This document shows, in pieces, positions 6,908-23,332 of a stretch of DNA of 32,000 nt. Source of the DNA: Balneolaceae bacterium (GTDB lineage: Bacteria > Bacteroidota > Rhodothermia > Balneolales > Balneolaceae); the NCBI GenBank assembly GCA_965601825.1, contig OZ271839.1, positions 1,985,164 through 2,017,163 on the forward strand, written 5' to 3'. The first letter of the stretch is position 1. Each line of letters begins with the position of its first letter. The notes under the pieces were generated by a model, which did no database searches, was not told the origin of the DNA, and worked only from the letters and a program-made list of their open reading frames with translations. A program made the translations under genes and the position numbers.

Positions 6908-6923
6908 AATCATCAATAAATAA

Positions 6924-7907: not shown

Positions 7908-7929
7908 ATCAATTTAAAAATCACTCACT

Positions 7930-9168
7930 ATGGCTATTAAAATTGAAATGCCCAAGCTTAGCGACACCATGGAAGAAGGTGTTATTGCTAAATGGAACGT
8001 GAAAGAAGGGGATACTGTAGCAGCCGGCGATATTATCGCTGAAGTTGAAACAGATAAAGCTACCATGGACGTTGAAGTTTTCGATGGCGGTACTATTCTT
8101 AAAATTGTTCCAGGTGAAGGTGATGCAGTTCCATTAGGTGGCTTGATTGCCGTGATTGGCGATGCAGGTGAAGATATTTCTGATTTACTTTCTGATGAAG
8201 GTGGATCTAGTGAAACAGCAGAAGCTCCGGTTAAAGAAGAAACGAAAGCAGAAGAAGTTCCGGTTCCGACTCCTGAAGTAAGCGCATCTACAGATGATGG
8301 TAGAGTGAAGGCTTCTCCATTAGCTAAGAAAATTGCTGCTGATAAAGGCATTGATTTGAATGCTGTGAATGGTTCAGGACCTGAAGGACGAATCATCAAA
8401 AAAGATGTAGAAACCTTCACGCCATCTGGTGGATTAACCAAACCAGCAGCAGCGAGTGCACCGGCACCGGTAAGAACGTTTGAAAGCCTTGAAAGCAAAG
8501 AGATTAAAGTATCTCAAATGCGAAAAGTGATTGCTCGAAGATTATCTGAAAGTAAGTTCACAAATCCGCATTTCTATGAGACCATTGATATCGACATGAA
8601 AGCTGCATTTGCTGCTCGAAAGGCGATGAATGAAGCCAATGATGTTAGAATCAGTTTTAATGATATTGTAGTTAAAGCATGTGCAATTGCATTAACTCGT
8701 CACCCGGCTATAAATAGTTCATGGCTAGATGATATTATCATGCAACACGGCGATGTGAATGTTGCTGTAGCAGTTGCAATTGATGAAGGTCTTATGACTC
8801 CGGTTATCAATCATGCCGACAAGAAAGGATTAGCTGAAATCTCTGCTGAGACGAAAGAACTTGCAGGTCTTGCAAAAGAGCGTAAGCTACAACCAGATCA
8901 AATGGAGGGAAGTACCTTTACTATAAGTAATCTTGGTATGTTCGGTATCGAAGAGTTTACTGCGATCATCAATCCACCAAATGCATGCATTCTTGCAGTT
9001 GGAGCCATACGTGACGTTCCAGTTGTTGAAAATGGAGCTGTTGTTCCAGGTAAGCGAATGAAAGTAACACTTTCCTCTGATCACAGAGTTGTAGATGGTG
9101 CGAAAGCAGCTGAATTCTTGAATACAGTTCGTAATCTGATCCAGAATCCACTTTCGATGCTCCTTTAA
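7930..9168 (+). CDS. pdhC: Dihydrolipoamide acetyltransferase (E2) of the 2-oxo acid dehydrogenase complex
   Basis: Single lipoyl domain with ETDKATMDVE lipoyl-lysine motif. Ala/Pro/Glu linker. Subunit-binding domain ASPLAKKIAADKGIDLNAVNGSGPEGRIIKKDV. Catalytic domain with DHRVVDG active-site motif. Confidence 0.9.
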   Translation: MAIKIEMPKLSDTMEEGVIAKWNVKEGDTVAAGDIIAEVETDKATMDVEVFDGGTILKIVPGEGDAVPLGGLIAVIGDAGEDISDLLSDEGGSSETAEAPVKEETKAEEVPVPTPEVSASTDDGRVKASPLAKKIAADKGIDLNAVNGSGPEGRIIKKDVETFTPSGGLTKPAAASAPAPVRTFESLESKEIKVSQMRKVIARRLSESKFTNPHFYETIDIDMKAAFAARKAMNEANDVRISFNDIVVKACAIALTRHPAINSSWLDDIIMQHGDVNVAVAVAIDEGLMTPVINHADKKGLAEISAETKELAGLAKERKLQPDQMEGSTFTISNLGMFGIEEFTAIINPPNACILAVGAIRDVPVVENGAVVPGKRMKVTLSSDHRVVDGAKAAEFLNTVRNLIQNPLSMLL

Positions 9169-9198: not shown

Positions 9199-9223
9199 AA
9201 GCCTCCAATTGGAGGCTTTTTTT
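9199..9223 (+). terminator. Rho-independent terminator closing the pdh operon, placed between convergent genes
   Basis: AAGCCTCC (9199-9206) - AATT - GGAGGCTT (9211-9218) perfect 8-bp stem running into a 7-T tract (9217-9223). The stop of the convergent - strand gene (9222-9224) abuts it. Confidence 0.75.
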
Positions 9224-11066
9224 ATGGAGTATACTCTAGGACAAAAATTACTGGTTCTGTGTTAAACACAGAATTCTGTAATAGATTAAATATCCTTCTG
9301 GTTTCATCCCAGCTGATGGATTGACCTGTCATCACAAAAAATTGCCCACTAGTTAACTCTTCAACTCGAGTATTAACCCCTGATTCTGACCGAACCTGTT
9401 GTGCAAGAGTTTCTGCAAATTGTTGATCGGAAAACGAGTTAACCTGTATTTGATAAGCATACTGATAATCAAAAGCTGTTTCCGGCTGATGACGAATAAA
9501 AAGGTTTGAAGTGATGCCTAATTCTCTAAATGATCTAAGTTGCGTTAGTACCTCATTTCTGTCGGTATATGGACCAGTAAGAATGTTATAAGTGTCAGAT
9601 ACACGATTCATGTAAGCTTGTACATTGTACTGATCAAACAACTCCATTGTGAAATTCAAACCATTCGTTCGATCCTGAAAAGCCCCAAATTGAATCAAAT
9701 ACTTAACCGGCTTAGGACGGTTAATAGTATTATTGTAGCACTGATGAACCAAGCTAACATTCGAATCACTTAACTGCGATGAGATTGTACTCTGCTTGGA
9801 AATAGCATCGCTAAATGAAGAAATCGCAGCAGTTCGAATTGAATAAGCTTCATTATTGAAAGTTAAAATCACTGGTTCTGCTATAGCAGTTTCAATTCTG
9901 GCTGCTTGTTGAAAAGCGGTTTGAAGTCCATCATACTCACCCAATCTAACTGCAAATTGACAACGGGCATCTACTCTTAGTAAAGAGGGCAGATTATTCG
10001 TTACAGGTATTATTTCCGGTTCAGGCTCTGGTTCAGGAGTAGTTGGAATTTCTCTAATAGGTTGTTGAAGTGGAGTTGGTTCCGTTTCAGGTTGAAGAGT
10101 TGTTTCATCTTGAGTTGATTCGTCTCGAACAGATTCCGTTTCATTAGCATCATTTCCATTAGGTTCAGCTGCTTGTTCACTTGCTTCTCGTTGCGCTTCG
10201 TCAATCCTATTTTGGTCAATTAAAGTGACGATAGCAGGTTGGTCAGCTAATACAACAATATCTTCCTCAACTGGAGTTGTTATTTCATTTGACTCTGGTG
10301 TTTGATCTTCAACTTCAACCTGATTTGTAGTTTCTTCAGCAAGTTCATCTTGTCGCTCTTCAAGTAAATTTTCTGTGGTATAGTAGAGACGAAGAACTAC
10401 GCGCCTATTTTGTTCTTTACTAGCTGCAAAAGGAAAACCAAGTGAATCATATTGAATTACCGGGCGCGAATCTGCATATCCGGAAGCTTTTAATCTTTTC
10501 GATTCGATACCCAGATCATTAAAGTACTTTACCACATTTGCAGCACGTGCCGTGGAGAGCTCCCAATTCGAGGGATATGCAACTGAAGAAATAGGATTAT
10601 TATCAGTGTGACCTTCTACATCGATATTAAAATCATTGTATTCGAGTTGCTGCATGGCGATCAACACTCGATCTAATAAATACTCTGCATCGGGTTGAAG
10701 TCTCGCTTCACCGGAGCTATAGAGGTAATCACTATTAAATCTGATTTTCAGATCATTCAAGTCGCGAATGATTTCTAGATTTCCGGCATCAATTTCAGGT
10801 TCCAAAAGTGTGAAAAGTTCATCTTGTATATTTCCGATAGGGGTGGTGAAGAACTCGGTTTCATCAGAAAACTTACCAAATAGTTCAGATAGAGAAGAAA
10901 ATTCGGTTTTTGTGATTTGAGATACAGCAAGAAGAATAATTAAAAAACCGAGTACAATCGTGATAATATCCAGGTAGCTAACTTGCCAACTAGATTCTTC
11001 TTCTTCCTCAAATTCTTGAAGAGGGAAAAGAGAGTGTTTAATTATTATTTGATCTCGTTTTTTCAA
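9222..11066 (-). CDS. MotB/OmpA-family stator-like protein with acidic Pro/Thr linker and three C-terminal SPOR-like domains
   Basis: TTG is the only in-frame start. W-QVSYLD-IITIVLGFLIILL single TM carrying the conserved MotB-type Asp (D33). OmpA-like core DVEGHTDNNP...NWELSTARAANVVKYF...GYADSRP...NRRVV. aa 231-352 E/T/P-rich linker (PEPEPEPE). aa 366-612 three SPOR-like repeats (YLIQFGAFQDRTNG...YNILTGPYTDRNEV; YQIQVNSFSDQQFAE...FFVMTGQSISWDET). Confidence 0.8.
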   Translation of the reverse strand: MKKRDQIIIKHSLFPLQEFEEEEESSWQVSYLDIITIVLGFLIILLAVSQITKTEFSSLSELFGKFSDETEFFTTPIGNIQDELFTLLEPEIDAGNLEIIRDLNDLKIRFNSDYLYSSGEARLQPDAEYLLDRVLIAMQQLEYNDFNIDVEGHTDNNPISSVAYPSNWELSTARAANVVKYFNDLGIESKRLKASGYADSRPVIQYDSLGFPFAASKEQNRRVVLRLYYTTENLLEERQDELAEETTNQVEVEDQTPESNEITTPVEEDIVVLADQPAIVTLIDQNRIDEAQREASEQAAEPNGNDANETESVRDESTQDETTLQPETEPTPLQQPIREIPTTPEPEPEPEIIPVTNNLPSLLRVDARCQFAVRLGEYDGLQTAFQQAARIETAIAEPVILTFNNEAYSIRTAAISSFSDAISKQSTISSQLSDSNVSLVHQCYNNTINRPKPVKYLIQFGAFQDRTNGLNFTMELFDQYNVQAYMNRVSDTYNILTGPYTDRNEVLTQLRSFRELGITSNLFIRHQPETAFDYQYAYQIQVNSFSDQQFAETLAQQVRSESGVNTRVEELTSGQFFVMTGQSISWDETRRIFNLLQNSVFNTEPVIFVLEYTP

Positions 11067-11078
11067 GAGGCATAGAAA

Positions 11079-11876
11079 TTAGATCATATTTCTATTTCTT
11101 CGCATATGAGCTTGAAGACGATCATAAATCTGAAGAGCAGTTTTATTCTCTTCAATTAGAATAATGCCTTCTAAAATCAATTTCTCTCGAAAATATCGTA
11201 AAGAAGCTACATTATTCATTTTCTTCGACATTGGCGTAAAAATGAAATTCCCTATTAAAATCCCATATAAAGTGGTCATAAGAGCAGCGCCAAGACCGGC
11301 TAGTAGTGACTCAACTTCACTAAAGCCGGATAGAATAACGATTAGGCCGAAAAGGGTTCCGAGCATACCAAAAACCGGTGAAGTCTTACCCATGCTTGCA
11401 ATAATTTGATTTACCAGTTGCTGTCGGGTATAGTTCTCTTCAATATTGATTTCGCCCAGTTCTCTTAAATCTTCAGTGGTATAATTAGTATCTAATACAG
11501 AGAAAAGGTATCCCTCAAACTGATCTGCATATTCTTCACTTAGTTGAGAAACAGCAGTAAATTTGTCTTGTTTGATCAGTTTTTGCCAGTCCATGATGCG
11601 TTGGATATCAGACTCGAGTACTTCTGGTGTTATTGTGCTGTAAGAGAATAGCTTCGTACTTTCAACTAGTGCTCTAAGTACACTATTGAACGGATAGCTA
11701 ATAAAAACACTTGCGGTAATTCCGCCAAAAACAATAGCCAAACTTGGCAAATTTAGAAACTCAAAACGCGATGGTATTAGATCGTATTCTGTAAATCCAA
11801 CCACTAATAACGCTCCCCAAACTAAAATGAGTAGAGAGATGAGAAAACATAAAATATTAAGGATCGAGGTACGCAT
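11079..11876 (-). CDS. MotA-type (MotA/TolQ/ExbB family) proton-channel protein, 4-TM flagellar-stator-like topology
   Basis: Two N-terminal TM helices, ~95-aa cytoplasmic loop, two C-terminal TM helices with SPVFGMLGTLFGLI and LGAALMTTLYGILIGNFIFTPM family signatures. C-terminal LILEGIILIEENKTALQIYDRL resembles the MotA tail. 12 nt upstream of the MotB-like gene. Confidence 0.85.
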   Translation of the reverse strand: MRTSILNILCFLISLLILVWGALLVVGFTEYDLIPSRFEFLNLPSLAIVFGGITASVFISYPFNSVLRALVESTKLFSYSTITPEVLESDIQRIMDWQKLIKQDKFTAVSQLSEEYADQFEGYLFSVLDTNYTTEDLRELGEINIEENYTRQQLVNQIIASMGKTSPVFGMLGTLFGLIVILSGFSEVESLLAGLGAALMTTLYGILIGNFIFTPMSKKMNNVASLRYFREKLILEGIILIEENKTALQIYDRLQAHMRRNRNMI

Positions 11877-11882
11877 GTAGGA

Positions 11883-12407
11883 CTAAAATGCCTTCTTTAA
11901 ATTTTCATCTATCAGGCCATTATTTTGTAACTGCTGGATAATGTAAGTGGATGAAGGTATGGGAACCTCAGGGTCCATTTCAAGTGCTCGACGCCATTGA
12001 TTTACAAATTCATTTATATATCCAAGTCCTAGATAAATGCTGCCCCTAAGTGCTAATACATCAGCATTTTCTTTAATTAAAGCCGCTCTGTTTATAAGGA
12101 ATAATGCATTTTCAAAATCACCGGAATAAAAATGTTGTTGAGCCAGTATATAATAGTTTGTCAGAGTATTTGCCTGGGCCTGATATCTGGAGTAAATATC
12201 GTCTTTGTAGAGCTCAATAAGGGCTTGTCTTAATTCTTCTTCTTTGGCTTGTGCCTGTGCAATACTATCTGCTTCTGGACTAATGATTAATTCCTGAGAA
12301 TCTACTGCACTTGTTCCACCATCAGAATCAGTTAACTCACCAGATGAACCGCAGTTAATTACGAATAGTGTAAAAAAGACCGCAATTGATGTGAGCCAAA
12401 ATTTCAT
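11883..12407 (-). CDS. TPR-repeat lipoprotein
   Basis: MKFWLTSIAVFFTLFVINC: signal peptide ending in Cys (lipobox-like). The rest reads as TPR-like helical repeats. ATG 12407 preferred over tracked TTG 12410. Gaps of 16 nt and 6 nt to its neighbours. Confidence 0.6.
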   Translation of the reverse strand: MKFWLTSIAVFFTLFVINCGSSGELTDSDGGTSAVDSQELIISPEADSIAQAQAKEEELRQALIELYKDDIYSRYQAQANTLTNYYILAQQHFYSGDFENALFLINRAALIKENADVLALRGSIYLGLGYINEFVNQWRRALEMDPEVPIPSSTYIIQQLQNNGLIDENLKKAF

Positions 12408-12426
12408 CAATCAATAAGATGTTGAG

Positions 12427-14283
12427 TTATGAGTAGCTGGCATTTTTTCTAATGGAATTCATCAAGATAGCTTTAGCGTATTCCGTTTGTTTAGTTGGAA
12501 TATCTTTTAGCTCGATAAGTTCCATTCTGAGTAGTCTCTGTTCTCTTTTAGGGCGCGCTGATAATATTTTTGTGATGATAGCTTCATCAAGCCCAACTAT
12601 AGCGTCTAAAAGTGTTTCAGTATTCAATGAACGAACAGCTCTTTTAATAATCTCATCGCTCAATTCTGGTAGCTGTTCAATAGTAATGAATTGCTTTTCA
12701 AGGATGGCCCCAACGATTGAACCAGTAGCTTTTAGTTCATCGATGTATCTTTTTTGTTCGTGAACCGGAAGTCGTTCAAGGATAGGGTAGATGTGCTCTG
12801 CACCGTATTGCTCACTTCTTTCAGCTTCGACTAAATCCATTGCTTTATCAAACAATTCAGACGATATCCTTTGCTGTTGATCGTTGGTTAAGTTATTCAA
12901 AGACGCCATTTGAAGCATGATCTTAGCAGCAATTTCCTTATCCAGCTTCTCAATAAACTCTGCAGCTGAGTCGTCCGGTAAATATTGTAGAATGAAAGCA
13001 CCGGATAAGCTATCCTCAGTTTCAAGTAAGGTGAGAATGTGGTGATTTGAAATATGATCTAAAAATTTAAATAAAGAGAATTTGTTTCGCTTACTCTCAG
13101 AAATCGTATCCTTTGCACCTTTTTCTAACATCTTCGCAAAATCAGTAACAACTTCTTTTCTACGGTCTGTTGTTAAATCAGGAAGTTCCATTACACTATC
13201 AATAACTGTATCGTAATCTTCCGGATGTAATTCTCGTTTTAACGTTCTAAGCAGATGTTTATCAACAGCTAGAATTACTTCAGCAGCTTTTCTGGCACCA
13301 TTCTCTTCTTCACTTAACCAGTATCTGAAAATTGTAGCAACTTCATCCGGCTTATTAAAGAAGGCTTCAACAACTTCCTCTTTTGTATTGATGAAAGTAT
13401 CAACACTTACTTCTTCAACTACATCAGTTTCCTCGGGTTCTTGAAAAGCAATAGGCTGAGGTGCATATTCATTTTTAAATGCTTCTCTAAACTCACGAAT
13501 AGGAATTTGGGGCGGTGGTTTATTCATTAAGCGATTGAACAGAATGGTTAAACCAAAGAGAAGCATCAAAGCTAAAGCCGGGATATACGTATATATCGAA
13601 TTGTAATCCGGTAGTGTTTGTGGCGTTATTGTAGTTGCCGTGATTGGTTCAGGCCTTTCAGAGAAGTCAGGAATGGCTAATTGCGAGATAATTATCTCAT
13701 CGCCACGAGCTTCGTTGGTTTTTACAGCTATACTTGTAATAAATCGCATCAACTCTAATTGTTCAGCAGTTAGAGAAGTATCAGCATAGATGTTAACGCT
13801 CATATTGATCAATCGAAGCGTCTTTATTGTATTCTGATTTACAATTACATCGGGCTGAAGACTAACAGAAGAAGGTGCACGAACATTTTCATCAGGTACA
13901 AAAGGAAGACCAGGCATGAACAGGTTTTGCCTTGGTTGAGACGTTGAAACAACTTGATTCTGACTAGTACCAATTGCTTCATCTACAAGCTCTGCATTTA
14001 TATTAACATCGATAAAAAACTTCTTTCTATTAAAGTAGTTTGCAAGAACTTGGATAATCTGGGAATCATACTGTTGTTCTAAATTAGTGACTCGCAATTC
14101 AAGTGACTGAGAATTTCCAGCGTCAATTGTAGCTTGTGCGCGAAGATCAGTTATAGTAGTTACATTAAAAATAATTAAGAAAAGAAGAGAAGGGGCGGCG
14201 ATTTTGAGTTCAAATATTGAACTGAGTTTAGAAGTCAATAAGTAAGATATAGGGGTATCTTTATGCATATTAGTCAGATGCAC
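12427..14283 (-). CDS. Membrane-anchored FliG-like protein: periplasmic ring-building-motif-like N-terminal half, TM helix, cytoplasmic three-domain FliG homologue
   Basis: aa 310-385 RKAAEVILAVDKHLLRTLKRELHPEDYDTVIDSVMEL...VVTDF (FliG-N pattern). aa 404-480 FKFLDHIS..LLETEDSLSGAFILQYLPDDSAAEFIEKLDKEIAAKIMLQMASLNNL (FliG-M / MgtE-N pattern). aa 525-612 LLDAIVGLDEAIITKILSARPKREQRLLRMELIELKDIPTKQTEYAKAILMNSIRK (FliG-C pattern with charged helix). TM at aa 229-252 (IYTYIPALALMLLFGLTILFNRL). Start is GTG 14283 or ATG 14268; either overlaps or abuts the usher stop (14270-14272). Confidence 0.7.
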   Translation of the reverse strand: MHLTNMHKDTPISYLLTSKLSSIFELKIAAPSLLFLIIFNVTTITDLRAQATIDAGNSQSLELRVTNLEQQYDSQIIQVLANYFNRKKFFIDVNINAELVDEAIGTSQNQVVSTSQPRQNLFMPGLPFVPDENVRAPSSVSLQPDVIVNQNTIKTLRLINMSVNIYADTSLTAEQLELMRFITSIAVKTNEARGDEIIISQLAIPDFSERPEPITATTITPQTLPDYNSIYTYIPALALMLLFGLTILFNRLMNKPPPQIPIREFREAFKNEYAPQPIAFQEPEETDVVEEVSVDTFINTKEEVVEAFFNKPDEVATIFRYWLSEEENGARKAAEVILAVDKHLLRTLKRELHPEDYDTVIDSVMELPDLTTDRRKEVVTDFAKMLEKGAKDTISESKRNKFSLFKFLDHISNHHILTLLETEDSLSGAFILQYLPDDSAAEFIEKLDKEIAAKIMLQMASLNNLTNDQQQRISSELFDKAMDLVEAERSEQYGAEHIYPILERLPVHEQKRYIDELKATGSIVGAILEKQFITIEQLPELSDEIIKRAVRSLNTETLLDAIVGLDEAIITKILSARPKREQRLLRMELIELKDIPTKQTEYAKAILMNSIRKNASYS

Positions 14284-17266
14284 CAGTGTTTACCCTCTCC
14301 TCTAGTGTTTCCATATCCGGAATATAGAGATCGGGGTTAAACCTCAATGCCTGTTCCCAATGTCTTTGCGCCTGTTCGATGTTTCCTTCAAAATAATAAA
14401 AACTTCCCTTTAATGCGTGCCCTTGTGCAGTTTCAAAAAGTTCTAATGATTCAGTCACTAAGCGGAATGCTACATCTATATTTTTACTATAAAATGCATT
14501 CTGTGCTCGAACTATATAGCGAAGGGCATCATCAATAGTTCCAAAGATTTCTTGGGAGTATTCTAAGATTTCGGGTGATGCTTTAATTGCATCAGTAACC
14601 TCAGCAATTGTGATTAATTCTTGTTCTGCTTCTTCGTCTAAGTCTTCAAGACTCCTTGGTGTTAATCGGAAGCTCAATCCTTCAACAAAATCGCCATTTT
14701 GTATTGCTTCAACTTCAAAATCAATTTTGTTTGGTGATGCATCAACTTGAAGGATATCAAGCTGTGATTGGTCGACACTTAAGGTATATGACCCTGGTGG
14801 AATTGGATATTCATAAAAACTGCCATCAGAAAATGTTCGTAGCTCGTTAATTACATTGCCACTATTATCAGCTAGAATGATTTTTAGACCACCAATACCT
14901 TGTTCCGTTGAATCGGGAAATACTCTATTTACACCACCTTCCATTACTCCAGCCATAAAAAATGGGATTTCAATTCTCTTGTAGGTATTTGGATCAGTTA
15001 TAATTGAAAACTTATCAACAGAGGGGACTAACATTGGATTATTGATAGATGAAATATTCATCTCAAGGTTATATTGAAAATACTGTTGCATCTGGTTGTA
15101 ATAGAGAACACCATTTTTAACAATAGCATTAGAACCACTTCTGTTAATTCGCATTCTGCCTTCTTCAATATCGTCATCAATTCCTTCATCGTAGATTTTG
15201 TTGTTATTATTATCAACAAATAGCTTAATGGCTGCTCCGGATCGCCCAACTTGATCTCTACTTGTTAGAATTAGGTTATCAAACTTGGTGTCATAGCCGA
15301 TTGAACCTCTTACACTGTTTGTTGTGCTATATCTATTACCTAGCTGTGTAAAAGTAGAATTTGCTCTAACTTTGTTAAAGTCTATAACAATATTAAATCG
15401 GATTGAATTTTCATTACTTAAGTAGTTTCTACCTAGAGTTAATTGAAACCTACCTTGCTTAAATACATTTCTTGATACCAAAAACTCAAGTGATTCCAGC
15501 TGAGACTGTTCGGCTAGGTATCTTGCTTGCCCTCGAACAAAAAAACCTTTAAATAAATCGGGTAATCGTGTATTTCTTGGTACAGTATAAGTAAATGAGT
15601 TTTCAAAGTACGATACTGGAGAAGGATCAAATATATTGTAAGTATTAGTTAGACGATCTGTATATCCCATTCGAATACTAAATTTCCTTATTCGAGTACT
15701 CAAATCTGTCCTAAATGTTGAGAAATTTCCTGTATCTCGTCTTCGGGTAAAATTTGAAACGCGAATATTTAGAGGGATTTCAAAAATTCTAAATGGGAAA
15801 AATAAGGAACCACTGAATTGATCTTTATTATTTGATGCATTGTAAAAACTTTGATTCTCACTAAAGTTCGTATAGTCAAATATGAAACTAGCACTATTAG
15901 CAAAAATTGAGTTAATCGAACTTCTGATATATCCATCATAAATACCTTCAAGCATAAGTGTTGTACTATTAGACAGTCTCGAAGATACTGAAGACACAAA
16001 ATAGGGGGTACTATTACCATTGGATTGATCATAATACTCAACGCCAAATTTGGTTGTTAGCCAATTTGTTAAGCCATAAGCAGCATTTCCTTGAAACGTG
16101 TAATTTTTACCAGTCTCACCAATAAAAAAGTTTTCAACATACCCGGCATTAGCTGTATAGTTTAATTCACCTTTTGGGATAAATGTAAATGGTATCTGAA
16201 TTCTGCTTCGCTTATTTATAATCTGACCAGTAGGCCCGTATATTCTGATATCTAATTGGGATGATCCATAATACCTAGGAATAAGAAATCGATAATTTCC
16301 AATTTCATCAGACTGTTGAAAATCCAGTAGTGAATTGTTTAGATAAAGTTCAACTTCTGATTGGGGAAAAGTAATACCATTAACTTCGTATTCATCAAAA
16401 AAAAGTCGAGGTTCAATTGGGTAATTAGAAATGCTAATGCCCGTATAAGGTGTCGTTAAAGCACCGCTTAAATTAGATTGTCCTACCGTAACCGTTGTTA
16501 ATGCGGGCTTTTCTTTTACTACATAACGCCATCGTAGACCATTTGTCTCTATTAGAGACACATCACTAGAAAAGTTACCGAATACTGCGCCCTGAATATC
16601 GCCACCTAATGCTTGAGCACCAATAACATTATTAAAGCTTACAGAACTTGTATTACTATTGATGGTAGTATTTACACTGTAATCGAGAAAACCAAAATCA
16701 AAGAAATTACGATTTAAGCCATCTCGTAAATCAAATAAGTTCTCATCTCTTCTAAGTAATGATGTTCTGCTTCTCTTTTGATCTCGAAGTGCCTTTTCTA
16801 TAATTGGCAGTTCTTGTAATGTATTTAGAGAGAGTGCTAGATTGTTAAAATCAACTGTAAAATCGAGTTCAAATACCGCATCAAATAAATCTACACGAAG
16901 AAAAGAGTCAAAATCTCCAAGTATGTAATCATCTGGAGAAATATCTATTCTTTTATCCTCAAACTGTATTACTCGTCTTTCAAAATCGATTAAATAAGGG
17001 ATTTGATCGATTGAAAAGTTTCCACTGATAATTAATCCTTCAACACTAGCTTCTAGCTGAAGAAGGGAGAAGAGTTCGTTTACAGGTAAGTAGAATTGAT
17101 CATTCTTATAAAAACTTGTGACATAAGAGCCAATTACCCCACGATGCCGGAATGTGAGATATACTTCAAATGCATCGTCATTATTTTGTGCACTTGCATT
17201 ATTTGGTAGAATGGAAACAAATGCAAGGCAAAAGATAAATGAAGCTTTAAGGCATTTGTAAATCAC
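14270..17266 (-). CDS. Fimbrial usher-like outer-membrane protein with extra C-terminal CarboxypepD_reg/Cna-B-like and TPR domains
   Basis: GTG start overlapping the chaperone stop (GTGA, 17263-17266). Signal peptide ...PNNASA-QN. VYLTFRHRGVIGSYVTSFYKNDQFYLPVNELFSLLQL resembles an usher N-domain. aa 274-362 YTGISISNYPIEPR..SEVELYLNNSLL..GNYRFLIP..LDIRIYGPTGQI..RIQIP matches the PapC/FimD plug-region pattern. Long aromatic-rich beta-strand region. aa 771-872 GGLKIILADNSGNV..TFSDGSFYEYPIPPGSYTL. aa 912-983 TPR. Confidence 0.6.
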   Translation of the reverse strand: MIYKCLKASFIFCLAFVSILPNNASAQNNDDAFEVYLTFRHRGVIGSYVTSFYKNDQFYLPVNELFSLLQLEASVEGLIISGNFSIDQIPYLIDFERRVIQFEDKRIDISPDDYILGDFDSFLRVDLFDAVFELDFTVDFNNLALSLNTLQELPIIEKALRDQKRSRTSLLRRDENLFDLRDGLNRNFFDFGFLDYSVNTTINSNTSSVSFNNVIGAQALGGDIQGAVFGNFSSDVSLIETNGLRWRYVVKEKPALTTVTVGQSNLSGALTTPYTGISISNYPIEPRLFFDEYEVNGITFPQSEVELYLNNSLLDFQQSDEIGNYRFLIPRYYGSSQLDIRIYGPTGQIINKRSRIQIPFTFIPKGELNYTANAGYVENFFIGETGKNYTFQGNAAYGLTNWLTTKFGVEYYDQSNGNSTPYFVSSVSSRLSNSTTLMLEGIYDGYIRSSINSIFANSASFIFDYTNFSENQSFYNASNNKDQFSGSLFFPFRIFEIPLNIRVSNFTRRRDTGNFSTFRTDLSTRIRKFSIRMGYTDRLTNTYNIFDPSPVSYFENSFTYTVPRNTRLPDLFKGFFVRGQARYLAEQSQLESLEFLVSRNVFKQGRFQLTLGRNYLSNENSIRFNIVIDFNKVRANSTFTQLGNRYSTTNSVRGSIGYDTKFDNLILTSRDQVGRSGAAIKLFVDNNNNKIYDEGIDDDIEEGRMRINRSGSNAIVKNGVLYYNQMQQYFQYNLEMNISSINNPMLVPSVDKFSIITDPNTYKRIEIPFFMAGVMEGGVNRVFPDSTEQGIGGLKIILADNSGNVINELRTFSDGSFYEYPIPPGSYTLSVDQSQLDILQVDASPNKIDFEVEAIQNGDFVEGLSFRLTPRSLEDLDEEAEQELITIAEVTDAIKASPEILEYSQEIFGTIDDALRYIVRAQNAFYSKNIDVAFRLVTESLELFETAQGHALKGSFYYFEGNIEQAQRHWEQALRFNPDLYIPDMETLEERVNTGASD

Positions 17267-18093
17267 CTAATTGTATAAGAAATAGATCTAGTTTGTGTTT
17301 CAATAGGAATTATATCATCTGTAGGCACGTCGCTTCTACTGCTCTCAAAAGTGGAGGTAATGATATAATTACCAGCTGGTAAATCATCAATATCAAATTC
17401 TTGGCGATGTGCGCCATCGAAATATAGTGATGTCGAAACGAAAGCTCTTCGTACTTCAATACCATTATTATTTACTATTGATGTTGAAATAGAACCAAGG
17501 AAAGGGGAGTTGCCGCCTCTTTCATAAGAAGTAATCACAGAAATGGAACTTTCCTCTTCATTTGGTTCAACTGTAATATCACCAATCTCGATTCCAGTAC
17601 TTACATCACCAACTTTATAAAATAACCCAGTTACTTGCTCAATGGTGATAGCAACCCTTGCGCTAACAACATCAGTGGCTTGAAGCTCAACTGGTGGTGA
17701 TTCAGGTGTAGATGATGTTCTGATTCTAGCCCAATACGTACCGTCGTCTAAAGAATTATCTGCATTTATTCGAAGGCGAACGGTTTGTCTTTGTCCAGGT
17801 GCAACCGTAAAATTTCTTGGGAATGCTCGGATTTTATCTGCAATTGAGTATTGTAACTCAGAGGTACTATCTGTAGTGATAAGTTGCCGCGTTCCATCCG
17901 GTAGACTACCGCTATAAGCGAAGAAAAAATCCACTGAAATTTCCTGTGTTTGGTTTGAACTATTTATAATTAAATAGCTACCAAATTTAGAATCATCCGT
18001 TATAAATAAATTGGTTGGTGCAATAGTTACCTGTGCTCTAATACTGCACGCTATAAAGAAGAGTAAGAAAATAGATGATATATATCGTTTCAT
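17263..18093 (-). CDS. PapD-like periplasmic fimbrial chaperone (two Ig-like domains)
   Basis: Signal peptide. VTIAPTNLFI..SYLIINSSNQTQEISV (strand A/B pattern). IRAFPRNFTVAPGQRQTVRLRI..DDGTYWARIRTSSTP (PapD core pattern f.v.PP.f.l.Pg..q.vRl). VAITIEQVTGLFYKVGD (FYRP-like strand). A second beta-rich domain. Sits directly upstream of and overlapping the usher-like gene. Confidence 0.6.
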   Translation of the reverse strand: MKRYISSIFLLFFIACSIRAQVTIAPTNLFITDDSKFGSYLIINSSNQTQEISVDFFFAYSGSLPDGTRQLITTDSTSELQYSIADKIRAFPRNFTVAPGQRQTVRLRINADNSLDDGTYWARIRTSSTPESPPVELQATDVVSARVAITIEQVTGLFYKVGDVSTGIEIGDITVEPNEEESSISVITSYERGGNSPFLGSISTSIVNNNGIEVRRAFVSTSLYFDGAHRQEFDIDDLPAGNYIITSTFESSRSDVPTDDIIPIETQTRSISYTIR

Positions 18094-18160
18094 AGCAGTC
18101 TAGTAGTTATTACCAAGAACTTAAGAAAAATTATTATATATGTTATTTATTTTTCTATCC

Positions 18161-18193
18161 AAAAAAAAAGGCCATGATTTCATGGCCTTTTTT
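18161..18193 (-). terminator. Rho-independent terminator/attenuator after the candidate major fimbrial subunit gene
   Basis: GGCCATG (18170-18176) - ATTT - CATGGCC (18181-18187) perfect 7-bp stem. On the - strand it is followed by a 9-U tract (A-run 18161-18169), and on the + strand by 6 T. Lies 21 nt after the stop at 18214-18216. Confidence 0.7.
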
Positions 18194-18213
18194 AAAAACG
18201 ATTGTTGATATTC

Positions 18214-18717
18214 TTACTGATAAGAAACTTCAAGTGAAATTGTAGCAGTGTAGTCAGAAGCTGCAGCTTGTGAAGAACCAGGTGTTACTGTTCCGCCAAT
18301 ATAGACATATAGAAAACCTGAACCGTCAAATGATGCACCTGTATAAGTAGAATTAGGATCAAAAGCAGTCAAAGTTCCGGGAGTTCCATCTGCATCCCAA
18401 CCAGCATCTGTTGCAGAAAATGAAATAGGCATTGTAGCGCCACCAGCAGTTGCACTTGTTAAATTTGATGGAAGTGTAAAGGTTAAATCTACACCAGCCG
18501 TAGCTGAACCAACAAAATCAAAGTTACCTGCATCTGCAACTGCCTTATCAATAGATTTTGCTATATCAGGTGTAACATTACCAAACTCTAAATCTCCAGG
18601 TGTTACAGTTACTGCTGCGATAACATTTGCGTTAGCAGCGATATCAAAAGATTGTGCGTTTACATTAGCAGCAACAAAAAATGTTGCAAAAACGAATAAA
18701 GAAACTAATTTTTTCAT
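18214..18717 (-). CDS. Small secreted DUF4402/Csu/SCPU-like fimbrial subunit, candidate major subunit
   Basis: Signal peptide ...ANVNA-QS. Ala/Gly/Thr-rich. Family motifs DLEFGNV, FLYVYIGGTV and C-terminal SDYTATISLEVSYQ shared with three upstream paralogues. Has its own flanking intergenic regions and terminator. Confidence 0.65.
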   Translation of the reverse strand: MKKLVSLFVFATFFVAANVNAQSFDIAANANVIAAVTVTPGDLEFGNVTPDIAKSIDKAVADAGNFDFVGSATAGVDLTFTLPSNLTSATAGGATMPISFSATDAGWDADGTPGTLTAFDPNSTYTGASFDGSGFLYVYIGGTVTPGSSQAAASDYTATISLEVSYQ

Positions 18718-18748
18718 GACAGTAGTATTTGTTGTTTATTTTCTACAC

Positions 18749-18756
18749 CAAACTTA
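18749..18756 (-). promoter_or_regulatory. Bacteroidota-type -7 promoter box candidate (TAAGTTTG = TAnnTTTG) for the major subunit gene
   Basis: - strand TAAGTTTG lies 31 nt upstream of the ATG at 18717. An ATTG sits 20 nt further upstream (possible -33 element). Same box-to-ATG spacing as at 23364-23371. Confidence 0.3.
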
Positions 18757-18786
18757 AGACACTTTCTTTTACCTACCAATTAGATG

Positions 18787-18800
18787 TTCTTAATTAAAAG
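18787..18800. promoter_or_regulatory. TTCTTAATTAA-containing candidate operator, copy 1
   Basis: + strand TTCTTAATTAAAAG shares an 11-nt core with the perfect palindrome at 20461-20474. Lies just upstream of the putative promoter of the major subunit gene. Confidence 0.3.
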
Positions 18801-18804
18801 CTGA

Positions 18805-19323
18805 CTATTGGTATTCAATATGTAGTACCACGTCTGCATTATAGGTGCCATTCTGAACATCACCGACGTCAACGCTACCAAAAACATATACATACAGCTG
18901 TTGCCATATATTATTAGATTCGGTTAATCCATTACCTAAAACATTAACATAACCCTCATTATCCAATAGAAGTGAAGAATTAAACGGATTATTTGAACCT
19001 GAATTGTTGTAGGCAATATCGAGGTTTATTGGTATACGATCTTGAACTGCCGGATTAATATGTTGCAAATATTCAGGTACCGATAGACTAAGAAAAAGTT
19101 CTTGGGTATTTATTGTTTTGATATTAAAAATTCCCATATCAATGTCACCCAGTTCAATTTCATCGATCCCAGAATTTGTAACTAGTATCCCAAAATTTAA
19201 TTCCTGATCAATTTCTGTACTAATTTCAGGCTCGACAGTAAGCTGAAGATTAATGAATTGGGCATACGTAGTCTGTGTTAATAAGAAAAAAAGTACACAA
19301 ATATGTATGACCTTATTAATCAT
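18805..19323 (-). CDS. Small secreted DUF4402/Csu/SCPU-like fimbrial subunit paralogue
   Basis: Signal peptide ...TTYA-QF. Motifs ELNFGIL, QLYVYVFGSV, NGTYNADVVLHIEYQ. Start overlaps the upstream paralogue by 8 nt. Confidence 0.55.
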   Translation of the reverse strand: MINKVIHICVLFFLLTQTTYAQFINLQLTVEPEISTEIDQELNFGILVTNSGIDEIELGDIDMGIFNIKTINTQELFLSLSVPEYLQHINPAVQDRIPINLDIAYNNSGSNNPFNSSLLLDNEGYVNVLGNGLTESNNIWQQLYVYVFGSVDVGDVQNGTYNADVVLHIEYQ

Positions 19324-19903
19324 AGCTAACCATAATATTTATGTTGCCTGTATAATTTCCGGCATCTACAGTACCTACATTAATTGAACCATAGATATAT
19401 AAATAGGCAGTATCATTAAAAACTGCGGGGTTATAGCCTTCATAAACCGGTGTTGGTGGGGGACCTGGTGGTCCACTTCCTCTATATTTTAAAGGAAATT
19501 GTGCACTTGCAACACTACCCAATACCATCATATTGATTGACTGGCTAGTCAAGTTTTGGCCTTGATTCGCATAAGATGACTGAAGTGTGAATGGGATTCT
19601 ACAAGCTGGATTTGTTTCACATCCTATTAAGCCATCAAGCAATAAATATTGATCTGCAGTTACTTCAACTAATACATCTAAATATTCTACACCTGTAATT
19701 GTGAATATTTTAGAACTATTAATATCTATCGATGCACTTGTTTCCTGAACAACTGTACCAAATTCAAGATTGGTTCCAGGCGAAAATTCATCTAGACTAA
19801 CTGAATAAAGACTGCTATATGTACCAAAGTTAATTTCTTGTGCAATTGAAGAAATACTGAATAAGTGAATTAATAGTAATATTGAAATTAACTTCGTTAT
19901 CAT
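19316..19903 (-). CDS. Small secreted DUF4402/Csu/SCPU-like fimbrial subunit paralogue (divergent: Cys pair and PPGPPPTP insert)
   Basis: ATG 19903 (MITKLISILLLIHLFSISSIA-QE, good signal peptide, 1 nt after the upstream stop) preferred over tracked ATG 19942, which overlaps the upstream gene by 38 nt. Motifs NLEFGTV, AYLYIYGSINV, AGNYTGNINIMVSYD. Confidence 0.55.
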   Translation of the reverse strand: MITKLISILLLIHLFSISSIAQEINFGTYSSLYSVSLDEFSPGTNLEFGTVVQETSASIDINSSKIFTITGVEYLDVLVEVTADQYLLLDGLIGCETNPACRIPFTLQSSYANQGQNLTSQSINMMVLGSVASAQFPLKYRGSGPPGPPPTPVYEGYNPAVFNDTAYLYIYGSINVGTVDAGNYTGNINIMVSYD

Positions 19904-19904
19904 T

Positions 19905-20399
19905 TTAGATATAATCGATTTCGATAGTGAAATCTCCTTCATATGTACCAGGTACGGCTTGTTCTAGGTTTACACGGCCACCAACCCAGATATAATACCT
20001 CCCTTCGTTGTTAAAGAAAATATTTTGATTTCTTTCTTCAATTAACTCAGAGGTCGTCTGGTCTTCGATAGAATTGCCGGATAACTCATAGGTAAACGTT
20101 AATGTACCTTCACCTGTTGTATTTGTTAGTTCTCTAGCGCGTAGAAAATCTAACCGGAATTCAGCTTCAGGTGTACCTAATGCAATCATAAAGCCTGCAT
20201 TAAGATCTGTGATTGGATTAACATATAATTCATTTTCATCAGCATCAGAATTTCCAAATGTCATTGAGTTTATCGTAACTAACTCAATAACTGGTGTAAC
20301 TTGTGCATTGATATTAATTGTAGCTGTTAATCCATCTCCCGATTGACCAAATGATAAAGCAGGTAGAAATAGTACAATAATAGTGATTAGAGATCTCAT
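19905..20399 (-). CDS. Small secreted DUF4402/Csu/SCPU-like fimbrial subunit paralogue (first gene of the subunit block)
   Basis: Signal peptide ...ALSFG-QS. Motifs SMTFGNS, RYYIWVGGRV, PGTYEGDFTIEIDYI. Confidence 0.55.
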   Translation of the reverse strand: MRSLITIIVLFLPALSFGQSGDGLTATININAQVTPVIELVTINSMTFGNSDADENELYVNPITDLNAGFMIALGTPEAEFRLDFLRARELTNTTGEGTLTFTYELSGNSIEDQTTSELIEERNQNIFFNNEGRYYIWVGGRVNLEQAVPGTYEGDFTIEIDYI

Positions 20400-20492: not shown

Positions 20493-20885
20493 TTACCAGG
20501 CAAATGCATTGAAGTAAAGAGGGTCAAGTTCTACCTCGCGACCTTGTAGTTGAATACTTCTAGGGAGTACTTCAGTATTTCTTATATAATTAGTAATCAT
20601 TTCGAAATTATAGGTAAGTGTTTCATTTCGAAATCTGGATGAGAATCGTACAGTTATGGTGTAAATACTATCAATTGGTTCCTCATCTATTAAATAATAT
20701 GGATTAGGTGTATTGATAGGGTAAAAGTCACCAACAATTTTAAGTTGATCACGCCCAGGGATAAAAGTACTATCCTCTAGTTGTGGCTGCAGATTTACAT
20801 TGAAGGTTATAGCTGTTTGAGCAAATCCACTAAGATTGATAGTTAGTAATATAAAAGCTGAGAGAATTAGTCGTCTTAGAGTCAT
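20493..20885 (-). CDS. Small secreted beta-sandwich (CBM/Ig-like) protein, function unknown
   Basis: Signal peptide ...SGFA-QT. ITFNVNL...LKIVGDFYP...IYTITVRF...LTYNFEM strand pattern resembles CBM20-like/Ig-like folds. Starts 3 nt after the stop of the 476-aa gene. Confidence 0.5.
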   Translation of the reverse strand: MTLRRLILSAFILLTINLSGFAQTAITFNVNLQPQLEDSTFIPGRDQLKIVGDFYPINTPNPYYLIDEEPIDSIYTITVRFSSRFRNETLTYNFEMITNYIRNTEVLPRSIQLQGREVELDPLYFNAFAW

Positions 20886-20888
20886 TTA

Positions 20889-22319
20889 TTAATCTGAGAT
20901 TTTAGTCACTTCGTCTTTCCAGTAAACGATAGAAAATACACTTTCACGTGGGAAAGAAGGAGGAATACTGGATTTTAATCTGTTATCGTATTGATAATTC
21001 TTTGAATACCCTGAATAAATGGTTGAACCTGAGAAGGTGCCCACAGGTCCTCGGTTTTCCTGAATCAATCCACCTAAGAGATTCAGTGTACCTTTGGCAC
21101 AACACCAATTATAGTTTTCCACATAGAATGATGTATTTAAAGCCACAATGGATGCATGGACGGTAACATCCTGAGTGCCACTATATGAATGTGCGTTTGC
21201 ATCTATTCGAACGTGACCTTCGCTCACTAATCCAAGCATGTCAGTACTGGATGAGTCTGCTAAAGGATTGGTAGCATATGTGATATCACCATCAATCTCG
21301 ATAAGTGATTCGGAATGTAGCGTTACGGCACCTTTCACAGTACCAACAACATCCACACGTCCAGTAGTTGAAATTACTCCGTTAGTAGCACTTAGATCAT
21401 AATCAACTGGGGAACTCCAAAAACTACCGTTGTACTCTGAAATTCGGGCATATCCAACACCACTACTTTCATAGAACTCAACATTTAACTGATTGTTAAA
21501 TCGTAATCCGCCATTGTTAGCAGCTGTTTCTAATTTACTGATCTCGTAACTAGTTGGAGAGCTTTTAACAGGAGCGTTAAAATTCTCGCCACCAAAAAAG
21601 TTTGGACTGGTTGGGTTTGTTGAATGCGCACGCCATGTATTTGGGCTTGTTACCAATCCATAGAAAGAAGGATCTCCTGACATCGCAAATTGTCCATTTG
21701 TATGAATTGGACCATAAATATTATCTGCTCCAATGAACCAAATTGTACTTCCAGACGAACTTAATTCTGATTGAGTCATGTAAGAATACTTAGAAAATGA
21801 ATCTCTTTGCATAAGTACTTCAGTTCTAACTTCTATGTCGTCGTACGTTGAGGTGCTAACTAATAATACCTTGTATTCATCCCAAGATGTAACACTATTA
21901 TTGGCTGGTTTATTCAGACTAGATTCAGTGTAACTTGTTAATTGACCACTTATCTCAAATCCACGAGCACCACTCTGTGAATTTACAAGTTGATCTGCAA
22001 GACCTTCTTCAATGTCCTGTAATTGCTCTAAACTTAGTTGACCAAGAGCCATTTTTTTTCTACCAGCATTGGACCGAGCTCTAATTGCAACAGTATCCAC
22101 AACATCGCTCATGGTAATTGAGCCTGTCCAATTATTATTGGCTTTCATTGTTTCAACTGCATTGTCAATCAATGATTTAGATAAATTTCTTGCTTGTTGA
22201 GCATTGTAATAATCAACAGATACTTCAGGTATATCTGTAACACGTTCTTGATTATTTACCTGAACAATGCCGGTAATAATTGTAAGTCCACTTACTAAAA
22301 ACAATAAACTTCTACCCAT
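20889..22319 (-). CDS. PilX/GspK-like large pseudopilin-like (tip) protein
   Basis: N-terminal hydrophobic anchor GRSLLFLVSGLTIITGIV followed by YYNAQQARNLSKSLIDNAVETM (PilX_N-like pattern). GPIHTNGQFAMSGDPSFYGLVTS motif as in large PilX-N-domain proteins. 9-nt gap to the upstream gene. Confidence 0.45.
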   Translation of the reverse strand: MGRSLLFLVSGLTIITGIVQVNNQERVTDIPEVSVDYYNAQQARNLSKSLIDNAVETMKANNNWTGSITMSDVVDTVAIRARSNAGRKKMALGQLSLEQLQDIEEGLADQLVNSQSGARGFEISGQLTSYTESSLNKPANNSVTSWDEYKVLLVSTSTYDDIEVRTEVLMQRDSFSKYSYMTQSELSSSGSTIWFIGADNIYGPIHTNGQFAMSGDPSFYGLVTSPNTWRAHSTNPTSPNFFGGENFNAPVKSSPTSYEISKLETAANNGGLRFNNQLNVEFYESSGVGYARISEYNGSFWSSPVDYDLSATNGVISTTGRVDVVGTVKGAVTLHSESLIEIDGDITYATNPLADSSSTDMLGLVSEGHVRIDANAHSYSGTQDVTVHASIVALNTSFYVENYNWCCAKGTLNLLGGLIQENRGPVGTFSGSTIYSGYSKNYQYDNRLKSSIPPSFPRESVFSIVYWKDEVTKISD

Positions 22320-22328
22320 GACTACTCC

Positions 22329-22913: not shown

Positions 22914-23332
22914 TAGTAGGTATATGATTTAACGTACTCTAAAGTGATGAAGACTTCAGGAGTAACATTCTGATTAAGTACAGATACAGTAACCTGATAT
23001 CGTTTCATCGAGCCGGTATCCTCAATCAATTCTGAGTTGCCATCTATCACGAATGTTGTAGTGTATTCATCATTCGATCCATATGTCTGTGACAATTCAA
23101 CAGGGTAGTTTGCATATACATAACTTCCGCTGCTTGGATCTAAATCATCCGGCTCGTAAATCCACTGAACCTTATCTAATTCATCCTGAGCAACAGCAAT
23201 CGCTCGGTATTCGGCTTCAGCCTGATAAATGGTTTGTCTTGACGAATTGAAGCTTCTTGCCGTGTTTAATGACAAAAAGGAAAAAACAACCATCGCTCCC
23301 AATAAGTAAAATATTTCGGAATAACTAGTCAT
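22913..23332 (-). CDS. PilV/GspI-like small pseudopilin-like protein
   Basis: MTSYSEIFYLLGAMVVFSFLSLN N-terminus (Glu at precursor position 6). AEAEYRAIAVAQDELDKVQW helix and C-terminal MKRYQVTVSVLNQ...FITLEYV resemble GspI/PilV. In-frame TAG 3 codons upstream fixes the start. Confidence 0.4.
   Translation of the reverse strand: MTSYSEIFYLLGAMVVFSFLSLNTARSFNSSRQTIYQAEAEYRAIAVAQDELDKVQWIYEPDDLDPSSGSYVYANYPVELSQTYGSNDEYTTTFVIDGNSELIEDTGSMKRYQVTVSVLNQNVTPEVFITLEYVKSYTY

Follow-up and report, generated by a model that had tools for sequence, protein, structure and literature searches.

A 32,000-nucleotide (nt) stretch of the genome of a Balneolaceae bacterium (contig OZ271839.1, positions 1,985,164 to 2,017,163; hereafter the window) contains a ten-gene cluster in which the genes of a divergent chaperone-usher (CU) system run directly into those of a small flagellar-type motor. 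In order on the minus strand, the cluster encodes four small secreted subunits, a periplasmic chaperone, an outer-membrane usher, a rotor protein, a TPR lipoprotein, a MotA-type stator subunit and a MotB-type stator subunit with a SPOR tail. The folds and family homologies of the products correspond to these two modules, and across genomes the linkage between motor and usher is conserved and correlates with a TPR tail on the usher. We favor, with moderate confidence, the view that the operon encodes a trans-envelope machine in which a CU module is joined to a minimal flagellar-type motor. That an ion-driven motor is mechanically coupled to the usher is a claim we hold with confidence ranging from moderate to good, according to how specifically it is put, while continuous rotation or screw-like drive of the fiber is a more tentative proposal. 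CU pili are the textbook example of fibers built at the outer membrane without cellular energy, and classically they draw none from the inner membrane; for FliG and MotAB, the only role known to us is that of torque generator in the flagellum. The linked operon thus suggests that the flagellar motor's core has been reused for another organelle at the cell surface.

All ten open reading frames (ORFs) lie on the minus strand between positions 20399 and 9222, where an earlier note on this DNA had placed them. The tight junctions described in that note were likewise reproduced. The chaperone (17263-18093) and usher (14270-17266) genes share a 4-nt overlap, GTGA, at 17263-17266. The usher stop codon, TAA, occupies 14272-14270, and the rotor gene starts either at GTG 14283, overlapping the usher gene by 14 nt and giving a protein of 618 residues, or at ATG 14268, after a 1-nt spacer, which is the start used in the public annotation (613 residues). 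The gaps between the rotor and TPR genes, the TPR gene and motA, and motA and motB are 16, 6 and 12 nt, respectively. This spacing suggests that the genes from the chaperone to motB form one operon. A consensus scan gave no convincing minus-strand terminator from 20399 to 9222, in agreement with the note, which saw none between 18093 and a strong hairpin at 9199-9223. Within the motB-SPOR coding region, an inverted repeat (9703-9724) with perfectly matched 7-bp arms, three G-C pairs and a loop of 8 nt scored as a possible terminator in either orientation; this weak signal is probably a chance occurrence. The G+C-rich hairpin itself, at 9199-9218, has an 8-bp stem with five G-C pairs and a T-run on the plus strand only. 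It separates the convergent motB-SPOR and pyruvate dehydrogenase (PDH) E2 genes and probably marks the end of the operon. The rest of the window encodes an alanyl-tRNA synthetase, an oxidoreductase and PDH E1 alpha, E1 beta and E2. As the note had remarked, no other flagellar genes were recovered in the 32,000 nt by family searches of the window proteins.

The rotor gene (12427-14283) had been described as encoding a membrane-anchored FliG homologue. The FliG assignment stood, as Pfam FliG_N, FliG_M and FliG_C each match at about 1e-9 to 1e-10. These matches cover residues ~400-615 only, and comparison of the remainder refines the description to a predicted fusion of the C-terminal half of FliF with FliG, secreted and single-pass. 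The first ~50 residues are signal-peptide-like and end in ...LRA|Q, as do those of other secreted proteins of the cluster, indicating a probable signal peptide cleaved at A49|Q50. There follow a conserved ~180-residue periplasmic domain that is putatively RBM3-like (residues 50-228; 13600-14136), with invariant PGLP and RGD..P motifs, and one membrane helix (residues 229-254). The cytoplasmic part (residues ~300-618; 12430-13386) contains the FliF tail motif and the FliG N, M and C domains, including the torque helix.

A profile built from 43 diverse members of the rotor family was searched against all PDB sequences. It matched FliG (1LKV, E=1.7e-42), Salmonella FliF (6SCN, E=7.7e-6, over FliF residues 369-559), Vibrio FliF (E=1.6e-5) and an engineered Vibrio FliF-FliG fusion (8Z4D, E=8e-36). 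A beta-alpha-beta element ending in RGD...F aligns with FliF RBM3b, the membrane helix aligns with FliF TM2, and a motif, ..A.LF.yW.., aligns with the C-terminal FliG-binding tail of FliF (...VVALVIRQWM); the 65 residues after this motif align with the N-terminal domain of FliG (5TDY). When searched by itself, the periplasmic domain still found part of FliF (9YH6, E=0.0039), the alignment taking in RBM3b, and one distant rotor member carries a faint precomputed YscJ_FliF_C match. Neither RBM1 nor RBM2 of FliF was found in the rotor protein in the profile alignments, which also gave no assignment for the N-terminal half of the periplasmic domain. We infer that the N-terminal half has an RBM3-like fold and that the protein forms rings; engineered FliF-FliG fusions assemble rings (PMC6079021, PMC11481574).

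Against the TIGR00207 fliG model, the rotor scores 52.9 bits (3.5e-14), below the 226.7-bit cut-off, and is therefore not an orthologue of flagellar FliG. Rotor residues R580 and E588 correspond to R281 and D289 of Salmonella FliG, respectively, and the residue at position 580 is Arg in 40 of the 43 family members. An exhaustive profile search (E<=1e-30) yielded 119 rotor-family clusters at 50% identity, most of which are 580-810 residues long, were matched over their full length and have the same fusion architecture.

The stator genes proved to be of the flagellar type, as the earlier note had proposed for its MotA-like and MotB-like-SPOR genes. The MotA-type A subunit (11079-11876; 265 residues) matches PF01618 (MotA_ExbB) at E=7e-16, and its best NCBIfam models are the flagellar stators MotA, PomA and MotP (1e-25 to 1e-28), with TolQ at E=0.013 and ExbB at E=0.07-0.09. 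Its PDB matches are solely flagellar stator A subunits, including Clostridium MotA (6YSF, 3.7e-22), Vibrio PomA (2.8e-16), Bacillus MotA and Campylobacter MotA, with no ExbB or TolQ chain among them. NCBIfam and PDB searches assigned it to none of the ExbBD, TolQR, GldLM, ZorAB and AglRQS clades. The MotB-type B subunit (9222-11066; 614 residues) has Pfam matches to MotB_plug (E=3e-7), an OmpA-like domain (3e-14) and SPOR (3e-8), with an acidic linker leading to the triple SPOR tail, and MotD, MotS and MotB are its best NCBIfam families. Asp33 in its membrane helix, which by its motif we take to be the MotB channel aspartate, is invariant in 40 of 40 sequences, distant members included. Both stator proteins score far below the curated equivalog cut-offs and are thus relatives, not orthologues, of the flagellar proteins. 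Taken with the very high conservation of MotA, the invariant Asp33 points to an active ion pathway. Across Balneolaceae, MotA is always 264-265 residues long and 68-93% identical, while rotor identity falls to 37% and that of the pilins lies at 30-60%. The SPOR region (9234-9965; MotB residues 368-611) matches PF05036 at residues 453-514 (E=3.4e-8).

Between the rotor and stator genes lies the gene for a 175-residue TPR lipoprotein (11883-12410), a candidate periplasmic adaptor of the rotor. Its TPR repeats match below threshold (E=3e-5), and its lipobox Cys is kept in most orthologues with an intact N-terminus, which agrees with its earlier designation. The usher (14270-17266; 998 residues) ends in a related module. 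Its C-terminal tail (residues ~887-996; 14279-14608), a proposed motor-docking module, is helical in the structural model and matches TPR_2 at E=1e-4. It shares 34% identity over 67 residues with the TPR lipoprotein (BLASTP, E=9e-11), a match by which the two modules are identified as paralogous.

Neither the chaperone nor the usher was picked up in Pfam, NCBIfam and PDB sequence-profile searches. Among the window proteins, Usher (PF00577) has no match at E<=0.1 and PapD_N (PF00345) reaches only 0.19; among 15 orthologues, PapD_N matches three (best 0.0029) and Usher one (3.2e-4). A weak match to the TcfC E-set domain is scattered among chaperone and usher orthologues, and Pfam Usher is also weak in a distant locus, L123. 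That the curated Usher and PapD_N models miss these proteins marks them as a very divergent CU branch. The PapD-like chaperone and usher-like outer-membrane protein named in the earlier note were instead recovered as folds, using AlphaFold2 models built on alignments of 80 and 89 homologues. The model of the 276-residue chaperone (pLDDT 87.6) has two Ig-like beta domains. Nearly all of its top 50 Foldseek matches in the PDB are CU chaperones (E ~1e-8), the top ones, FimC, EcpB, Caf1M, CfaA, CsuC and PapD, matching over the full length, and the best TM-score is to the archaic CsuC. Source annotations name homologues "fimbrial biogenesis chaperone" and "PapD". The usher model (pLDDT 82.1) is composed of an N-terminal beta domain, a barrel with an inserted plug, two C-terminal beta domains and the helical TPR tail. 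Each of its 19 best Foldseek matches in the PDB is to FimD or PapC, at E-values from 1.6e-27 to 1.4e-10 and over 490-942 alignment columns; the match that follows them has 1.9e-7. On these models, the two proteins are identified as a PapD-like chaperone and an usher of the FimD/PapC fold. FliG, MotA, MotB, PapD and usher folds were thus all recovered by the family and structure searches.

The four small proteins upstream all carry signal peptides. Subunit 1 (19905-20399; 164 residues) matches Pfam DUF4402 at E=3.3e-4 and has orthologues at the same position in the 36 Balneolaceae loci that reach that far. Subunits 2 (19316-19942; 208 residues; without a Pfam match) and 3 (18805-19323; 172 residues) are conserved in position; the profile of subunit 2 orthologues cross-matches the other subunit classes and that of subunit 3 cross-matches subunits 2 and 4. 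Subunit 4 (18214-18717; 167 residues) has a full-length DUF4402 match (E=0.0016). In every locus examined, its position is held by a signal-peptide ORF of 166-215 residues ending in ...TVxY[NQ], and it is probably a fast-evolving major subunit. Among the window subunits, only these two of the four match DUF4402, and weakly; across the subunit family, 33 of 54 members match it, with a best value of 4.3e-34 and no competing family. On these profile matches, we assign the four proteins to DUF4402. The earlier description of them as DUF4402/Csu-like held for its first half, while likeness to Csu was found for the chaperone fold alone, the PDB sequence search having returned no similarity of the subunits to Csu or Fim pilins.

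The pairing of motor and usher genes recurs well beyond this genome. A genome scan with the rotor protein identified 38 loci in Balneolaceae species genomes, and in the 36 that reach far enough the order subunits-chaperone-usher-rotor-TPR-MotA-MotB-SPOR is identical. Since the adjacent PDH genes are also syntenic, gene order within Balneolaceae is by itself weak evidence. However, six of eight distant rotor loci (~20% identity), L041-L044, L122 and L123, have the rotor gene directly behind a gene for an usher homologue of ~965-1000 residues. Five of these six have MotA and MotB genes downstream, the contig of L123 ending after the TPR gene, and chaperone and DUF4402 subunit genes lie upstream in L041-L044 and L122. 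L122 and L123 were judged from gene tables, and L041-L044 from matches to the Balneolaceae profiles (usher ~1e-240, chaperones 1e-57 to 1e-75, MotA ~1e-60).

A metagenome scan seeded with the usher added 74 loci and showed that the linkage follows the usher tail. Counting loci with enough downstream sequence, the rotor gene is directly next in 58 of 58 loci with TPR-tailed ushers, in none of 13 with SPOR-tailed ushers and in none of 21 with tail-less ushers of ~857 residues (together 0/34). When only the usher-selected loci are counted, the rotor gene comes next in 19/19 TPR-tailed cases and 0/31 others. Thus the arrangement, found in 36 Balneolaceae loci, 19 of 19 TPR-tailed metagenome loci and six of eight distant loci, is not the peculiarity of a single genome, and its recurrence in dozens of independent genomes indicates more than a chance arrangement.

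Relatives without the motor show a complementary pattern. Gracilimonas, Fodinibius halophilus and Balneola vulgaris DSM 17893 have the same cluster without the rotor, TPR, MotA and MotB genes, at the same chromosomal place, with PDH E2 adjoining in the latter two. Their ushers are 1169-1239 residues long and end in SPOR repeats, and such ushers also occur in ~13 metagenome loci (e.g. L061, L063 and L068). Taken together, these SPOR-tailed ushers of motor-less relatives end in a variable linker and three SPOR repeats, with total lengths of 1120-1549 residues; examples are encoded at 10001-13516 in L039, 10001-13720 in L040 and 10834-14343 in L045. The SPOR repeats thus lie on the usher in these sister loci instead of on MotB. 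Residues 912-1160 of the Gracilimonas usher-SPOR fusion (P0162) are collinear with residues 368-611 of the window MotB, all three repeats included (E=9e-11), indicating that the two forms differ by one ~5-kb block that extends from the usher TPR tail to the OmpA-like part of MotB. In a neighbor-joining tree of ushers, motor-bearing and SPOR-fused forms are interleaved many times, and in distant outgroups the motor is present and SPOR is absent. Repeated loss or allelic exchange of the motor block seems likely from these comparisons, the tree leaving its direction undecided. The motor is an optional add-on, and the CU module can stand alone.

The distant rotor loci also vary in composition. In L041-L043, a TPR module follows FliG_C in frame at the rotor C-terminus, after a lipoprotein-signal-like helix (...LAGC, ...TSC and ...AGC, respectively; rotor genes at 5844-8267, 10001-12265 and 10001-12250). 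This fusion implies either a second membrane pass or release of the TPR module from a "polyprotein" by signal peptidase II. An N-terminal periplasmic LysM domain is present on the rotor in L041 (5844-8267; residues ~32-73) and L044 (10001-12226; residues ~72-115). L041, L043, L044 and L122 have two paralogous chaperone genes (at 4855-5688 and 6202-7053 in L043) and five to six pilin-like genes, where the window has one and four. L046 (9517-14569) and L047 (7387-12534), which represent a sister clade of the rotor protein, encode a rotor of 606-613 residues, an unannotated protein of ~360 residues, TPR, MotA and MotB; neither has CU genes, and type IX secretion system (T9SS) substrates and a PorZ-like gene adjoin. 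The rotor, TPR and stator set thus behaves as a portable module of which the usher is the commonest but not the sole partner. T9SS signals suggest that the distant loci lie within the Bacteroidota-related superphylum. No other flagellar genes were found within 10 kb in any related locus with a gene table.

The following mechanism would account for these findings. An archaic-type CU system of four DUF4402 pilins, chaperone and usher would assemble a surface fiber. In the inner membrane, the rotor fusion would form a ring, its FliF-like domain facing the periplasm and its FliG part the cytoplasm, and MotA5B2-type units would be anchored to peptidoglycan through the OmpA-like domain and the three SPOR repeats. 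Flow of protons or sodium through MotB Asp33 would drive a push on the FliG torque helix. The TPR lipoprotein, made 1:1 with the rotor, would be carried on the periplasmic face of the ring, and the paralogous TPR tail at the periplasmic C-terminus of the usher would dock on it, so that torque or force would pass to the usher and the base of the fiber. The paralogy of the usher tail, the TPR-rotor fusions in L041-L043 and the movement of SPOR between MotB and usher are the clues to physical coupling. Ring formation, ion use, contact between the TPR modules and the output of the motor are what we infer. The likeliest output would be that the usher-held fiber is turned or twisted, either to spin or to drive a screw-like extension or retraction. 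On their way through FimD, subunits trace a rotating, screw-like path, and a rotary drive could plausibly assist or reverse such a movement. Stated in full, the proposal that a minimal FliF-FliG rotor with MotAB, lacking type III export, rod and filament, spins or screws a CU fiber through TPR couplers is one we advance as a possibility only; equally tentative is the part of it in which the spun fiber acts as a propeller, drill or winch, possibly bearing a giant T9SS adhesin.

Several findings weigh against this reading. The L046/L047 clade shows that the motor has partners other than the usher, and the retention of CU genes without a motor means that the motor is not needed for assembly itself. 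Similarity to FliF is moderate (E=7.7e-6 to 0.02) and extends from RBM3b onward only, and the charges corresponding to D288 and R297 of the FliG torque helix are not kept in the window rotor. LysM on the L041 and L044 rotors, if it binds peptidoglycan, would oppose free rotation. The usher is itself tethered to the wall by SPOR in motor-less forms, and we know of no precedent among ushers for an outer-membrane barrel that turns in its membrane.

The LysM domains, the wall-tethered usher and the incomplete torque charges favor a rival in which the motor acts in the manner of TonB-ExbBD or Tol-Pal and delivers short power strokes, or torque over a limited angle, through the TPR adaptors, opening the usher plug, speeding translocation or pulling the fiber back without spinning it. 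TonB-dependent transporters have a plug domain in their barrel, and the usher model likewise places a plug inside the barrel; LysM would in this case tether the rotor to the wall, just as SPOR tethers the usher to peptidoglycan where the motor is missing. What speaks for turning instead is that a complete flagellar-type rotor-stator pair has been kept, its A subunit matching TolQ and ExbB only at E>=0.01 and neither in the PDB, and that a FliF-like ring-building segment together with a full FliG is hard to explain without a turning ring. We regard this energizing role as a serious though rather unlikely alternative. An energizer of the ExbBD/TolQR type proper is excluded, the stator belonging to the wrong clade.

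It is improbable, in our judgment, that usher and motor are independent neighbors, with the motor serving another process, such as movement or secretion of T9SS surface proteins, or another partner, and the gene order simply inherited. This reading draws on L046 and L047, where the motor set lies beside T9SS substrates and a PorZ-like gene without CU genes, on the high general synteny of Balneolaceae, in which the PDH genes are conserved alongside, and on the constant proximity of a gene for a giant T9SS protein. It must nevertheless contend with the perfect tracking of the motor by the usher TPR tail (58/58 against 0/34), the paralogy of that tail with the rotor-linked TPR module, usher and rotor genes that overlap or abut, a linkage that persists at ~20% identity in six unrelated contexts, and a SPOR tail that swaps between MotB and usher.

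A static role is slightly more doubtful still. Here the ring and the peptidoglycan-bound MotB would hold the usher in place, at poles or septa through SPOR, for instance, or would sense the load on the fiber and signal inward, with ion flow having a regulatory function and doing no mechanical work. Peptidoglycan is the target of SPOR and LysM domains, flagellar stators act as mechanosensors, and in distant loci the cluster is directly followed by genes for a response regulator of the AraC type and a histidine kinase, all of which would suit a scaffold or sensor; yet the invariant Asp33 and highly conserved MotA point to an active ion pathway, and Pfam and NCBIfam searches found no signaling domain on any of the ten window proteins. 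Response regulator and histidine kinase genes directly after motB were seen in L041 (9755-11928), L043 (13728-15898), L044 (14679-15449) and L042 (13859-16080, minus strand). The output domain of the regulator is AraC-type in three of these loci and GerE-type in one, and no regulator gene was seen in the window.

That the motor genes are the decaying remnant of a lost flagellar system lying by chance beside fimbrial genes is so unlikely that we reject it, even though some Balneolaceae are flagellated (PMC5167729) and filament-less rotor proteins are reported for 11% of non-motile species (PMC12199754). Every locus examined has intact ORFs, MotA keeps 68-93% identity across the family, key residues are invariant, 119 clusters share the fusion architecture, the 10 kb around the loci with gene tables hold no further flagellar gene, and flagellated B. 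vulgaris is without the module.

Standard flagellar fliG and motAB copies are likewise excluded, by architecture, context and absence from flagellated B. vulgaris. Flagella have been observed in B. vulgaris (PMC5167729), which has no motor module at this locus, and this argues that the module is not a flagellar motor. The fusion rotor and triple-SPOR MotB accord with this exclusion, and with the earlier note's view that the genes are more than ordinary flagellar copies. The likeness to the flagellar motor lies in the FliG N, M and C domains, segments that align with the FliF RBM3b, second helix and FliG-binding tail, a stator-type MotA, and a MotB with plug, channel Asp and OmpA-like peptidoglycan domain. 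The differences are that FliF and FliG form one polypeptide with a signal peptide, a single membrane helix and no RBM1 or RBM2; that no genes for FliM/FliN, export apparatus, rod, hook or filament lie nearby; and that MotB carries three SPOR repeats, the neighbors are pilus genes and the scores fall below the equivalog cut-offs. Engineered Salmonella and Vibrio FliF-FliG fusions (8Z4D/8Z4G) have the same head-to-tail order in one chain, but they are laboratory constructs with full-length FliF, whereas the protein described here is natural, shortened and encoded outside flagellar clusters.

Among CU systems, the Csu pili of Acinetobacter baumannii (CsuA/B-A-B-E, CsuC, CsuD) are similar in the order of small secreted subunits, chaperone and usher, in the chaperone model, which has its best TM-scores to CsuC, and in the FimD/PapC fold of the usher. 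By contrast, the subunits described here are DUF4402 proteins without a Csu match, the usher and chaperone fall short of the Usher and PapD_N models, an extra TPR (or SPOR) tail extends the usher and a motor module is attached. GldLM, the ion-driven inner-membrane motor of the T9SS and gliding, supplies machinery in the outer membrane with mechanical energy that it transmits through the periplasm (PMC8986121, PMC9127263). It too is a motor of the 5:2 type, from the same superphylum, and T9SS substrates are encoded beside the present locus. However, GldL and GldM are not of the MotA/MotB type and have no FliG-like ring, and GldM itself spans the periplasm, whereas the machine proposed here would rely on a FliG ring in the cytoplasm and on TPR adaptors. 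TonB-ExbBD and Tol-Pal also comprise an inner-membrane 5:2 ion motor that acts on a plugged barrel or on cell-wall linkage; the cluster described here differs in its stator family, in having no TonB- or TolA-like spanning protein and in its FliG-bearing partner.

Our literature search covered openly searchable full text, with subscription-only literature outside its scope, and within it returned no description of an usher paired with FliG/MotAB; "DUF4402" was not mentioned in the searchable papers. A 2025 survey reported rotor proteins in non-flagellated and non-motile bacteria without explanation (PMC12199754), and a 2025 MotAB phylogeny does not report an usher context (PMC12505986). The cluster probably represents a new kind of ion-driven envelope machine, its function being read from genomic context, and it offers a concrete system for the question of what rotor proteins do in bacteria that have no flagella. 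It would also provide a natural minimal rotor, with FliF joined to FliG in a single chain and neither switch nor export gate, for studies of motor evolution and mechanics. If the proposal is true, it is a free-standing relative of the flagellar motor core that bears on the origin or simplification of that motor, and the paralogous TPR modules on rotor and usher point to a new route for mechanical energy across the Gram-negative envelope. The motor-bearing and motor-less alleles at the same chromosomal site in related species constitute a natural experiment, and both are available in cultured strains, Balneola sp. EhC07 with the motor and B. vulgaris DSM 17893 without it.

Conserved genes of uncertain membership in the system lie upstream on the minus strand (20493-31693) and occur in both motor-bearing and motor-less loci. 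The largest (23552-31693) encodes a 2713-residue surface protein with Laminin_G, Invasin_D3 and a T9SS C-terminal sorting domain. It is on the same strand as the pilin genes and constantly upstream of them, whether or not the motor is present, with counterparts as the first gene of L039, L040 and L045, at 217-3423 in L042 and at 1-1375 in L122. In L042, where it encodes a T9SS protein of 1068 residues, this gene shares 4 nt with that of the first pilin. The giant protein might work together with the fiber, perhaps as an adhesin that the fiber carries or moves. Between it and subunit 1, four genes (20493-23332) encode a secreted protein of 130 residues, a DUF4900 protein of 476 residues and proteins of 194 and 139 residues. 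Each of the latter three recalls the pseudopilins in its one hydrophobic helix at the N-terminus, and no canonical prepilin motif was found in them. This four-gene set is present in many loci and absent from a Balneola subgroup (L021, L023, L025, L027-L030 and others), in which the giant gene abuts that of subunit 1.

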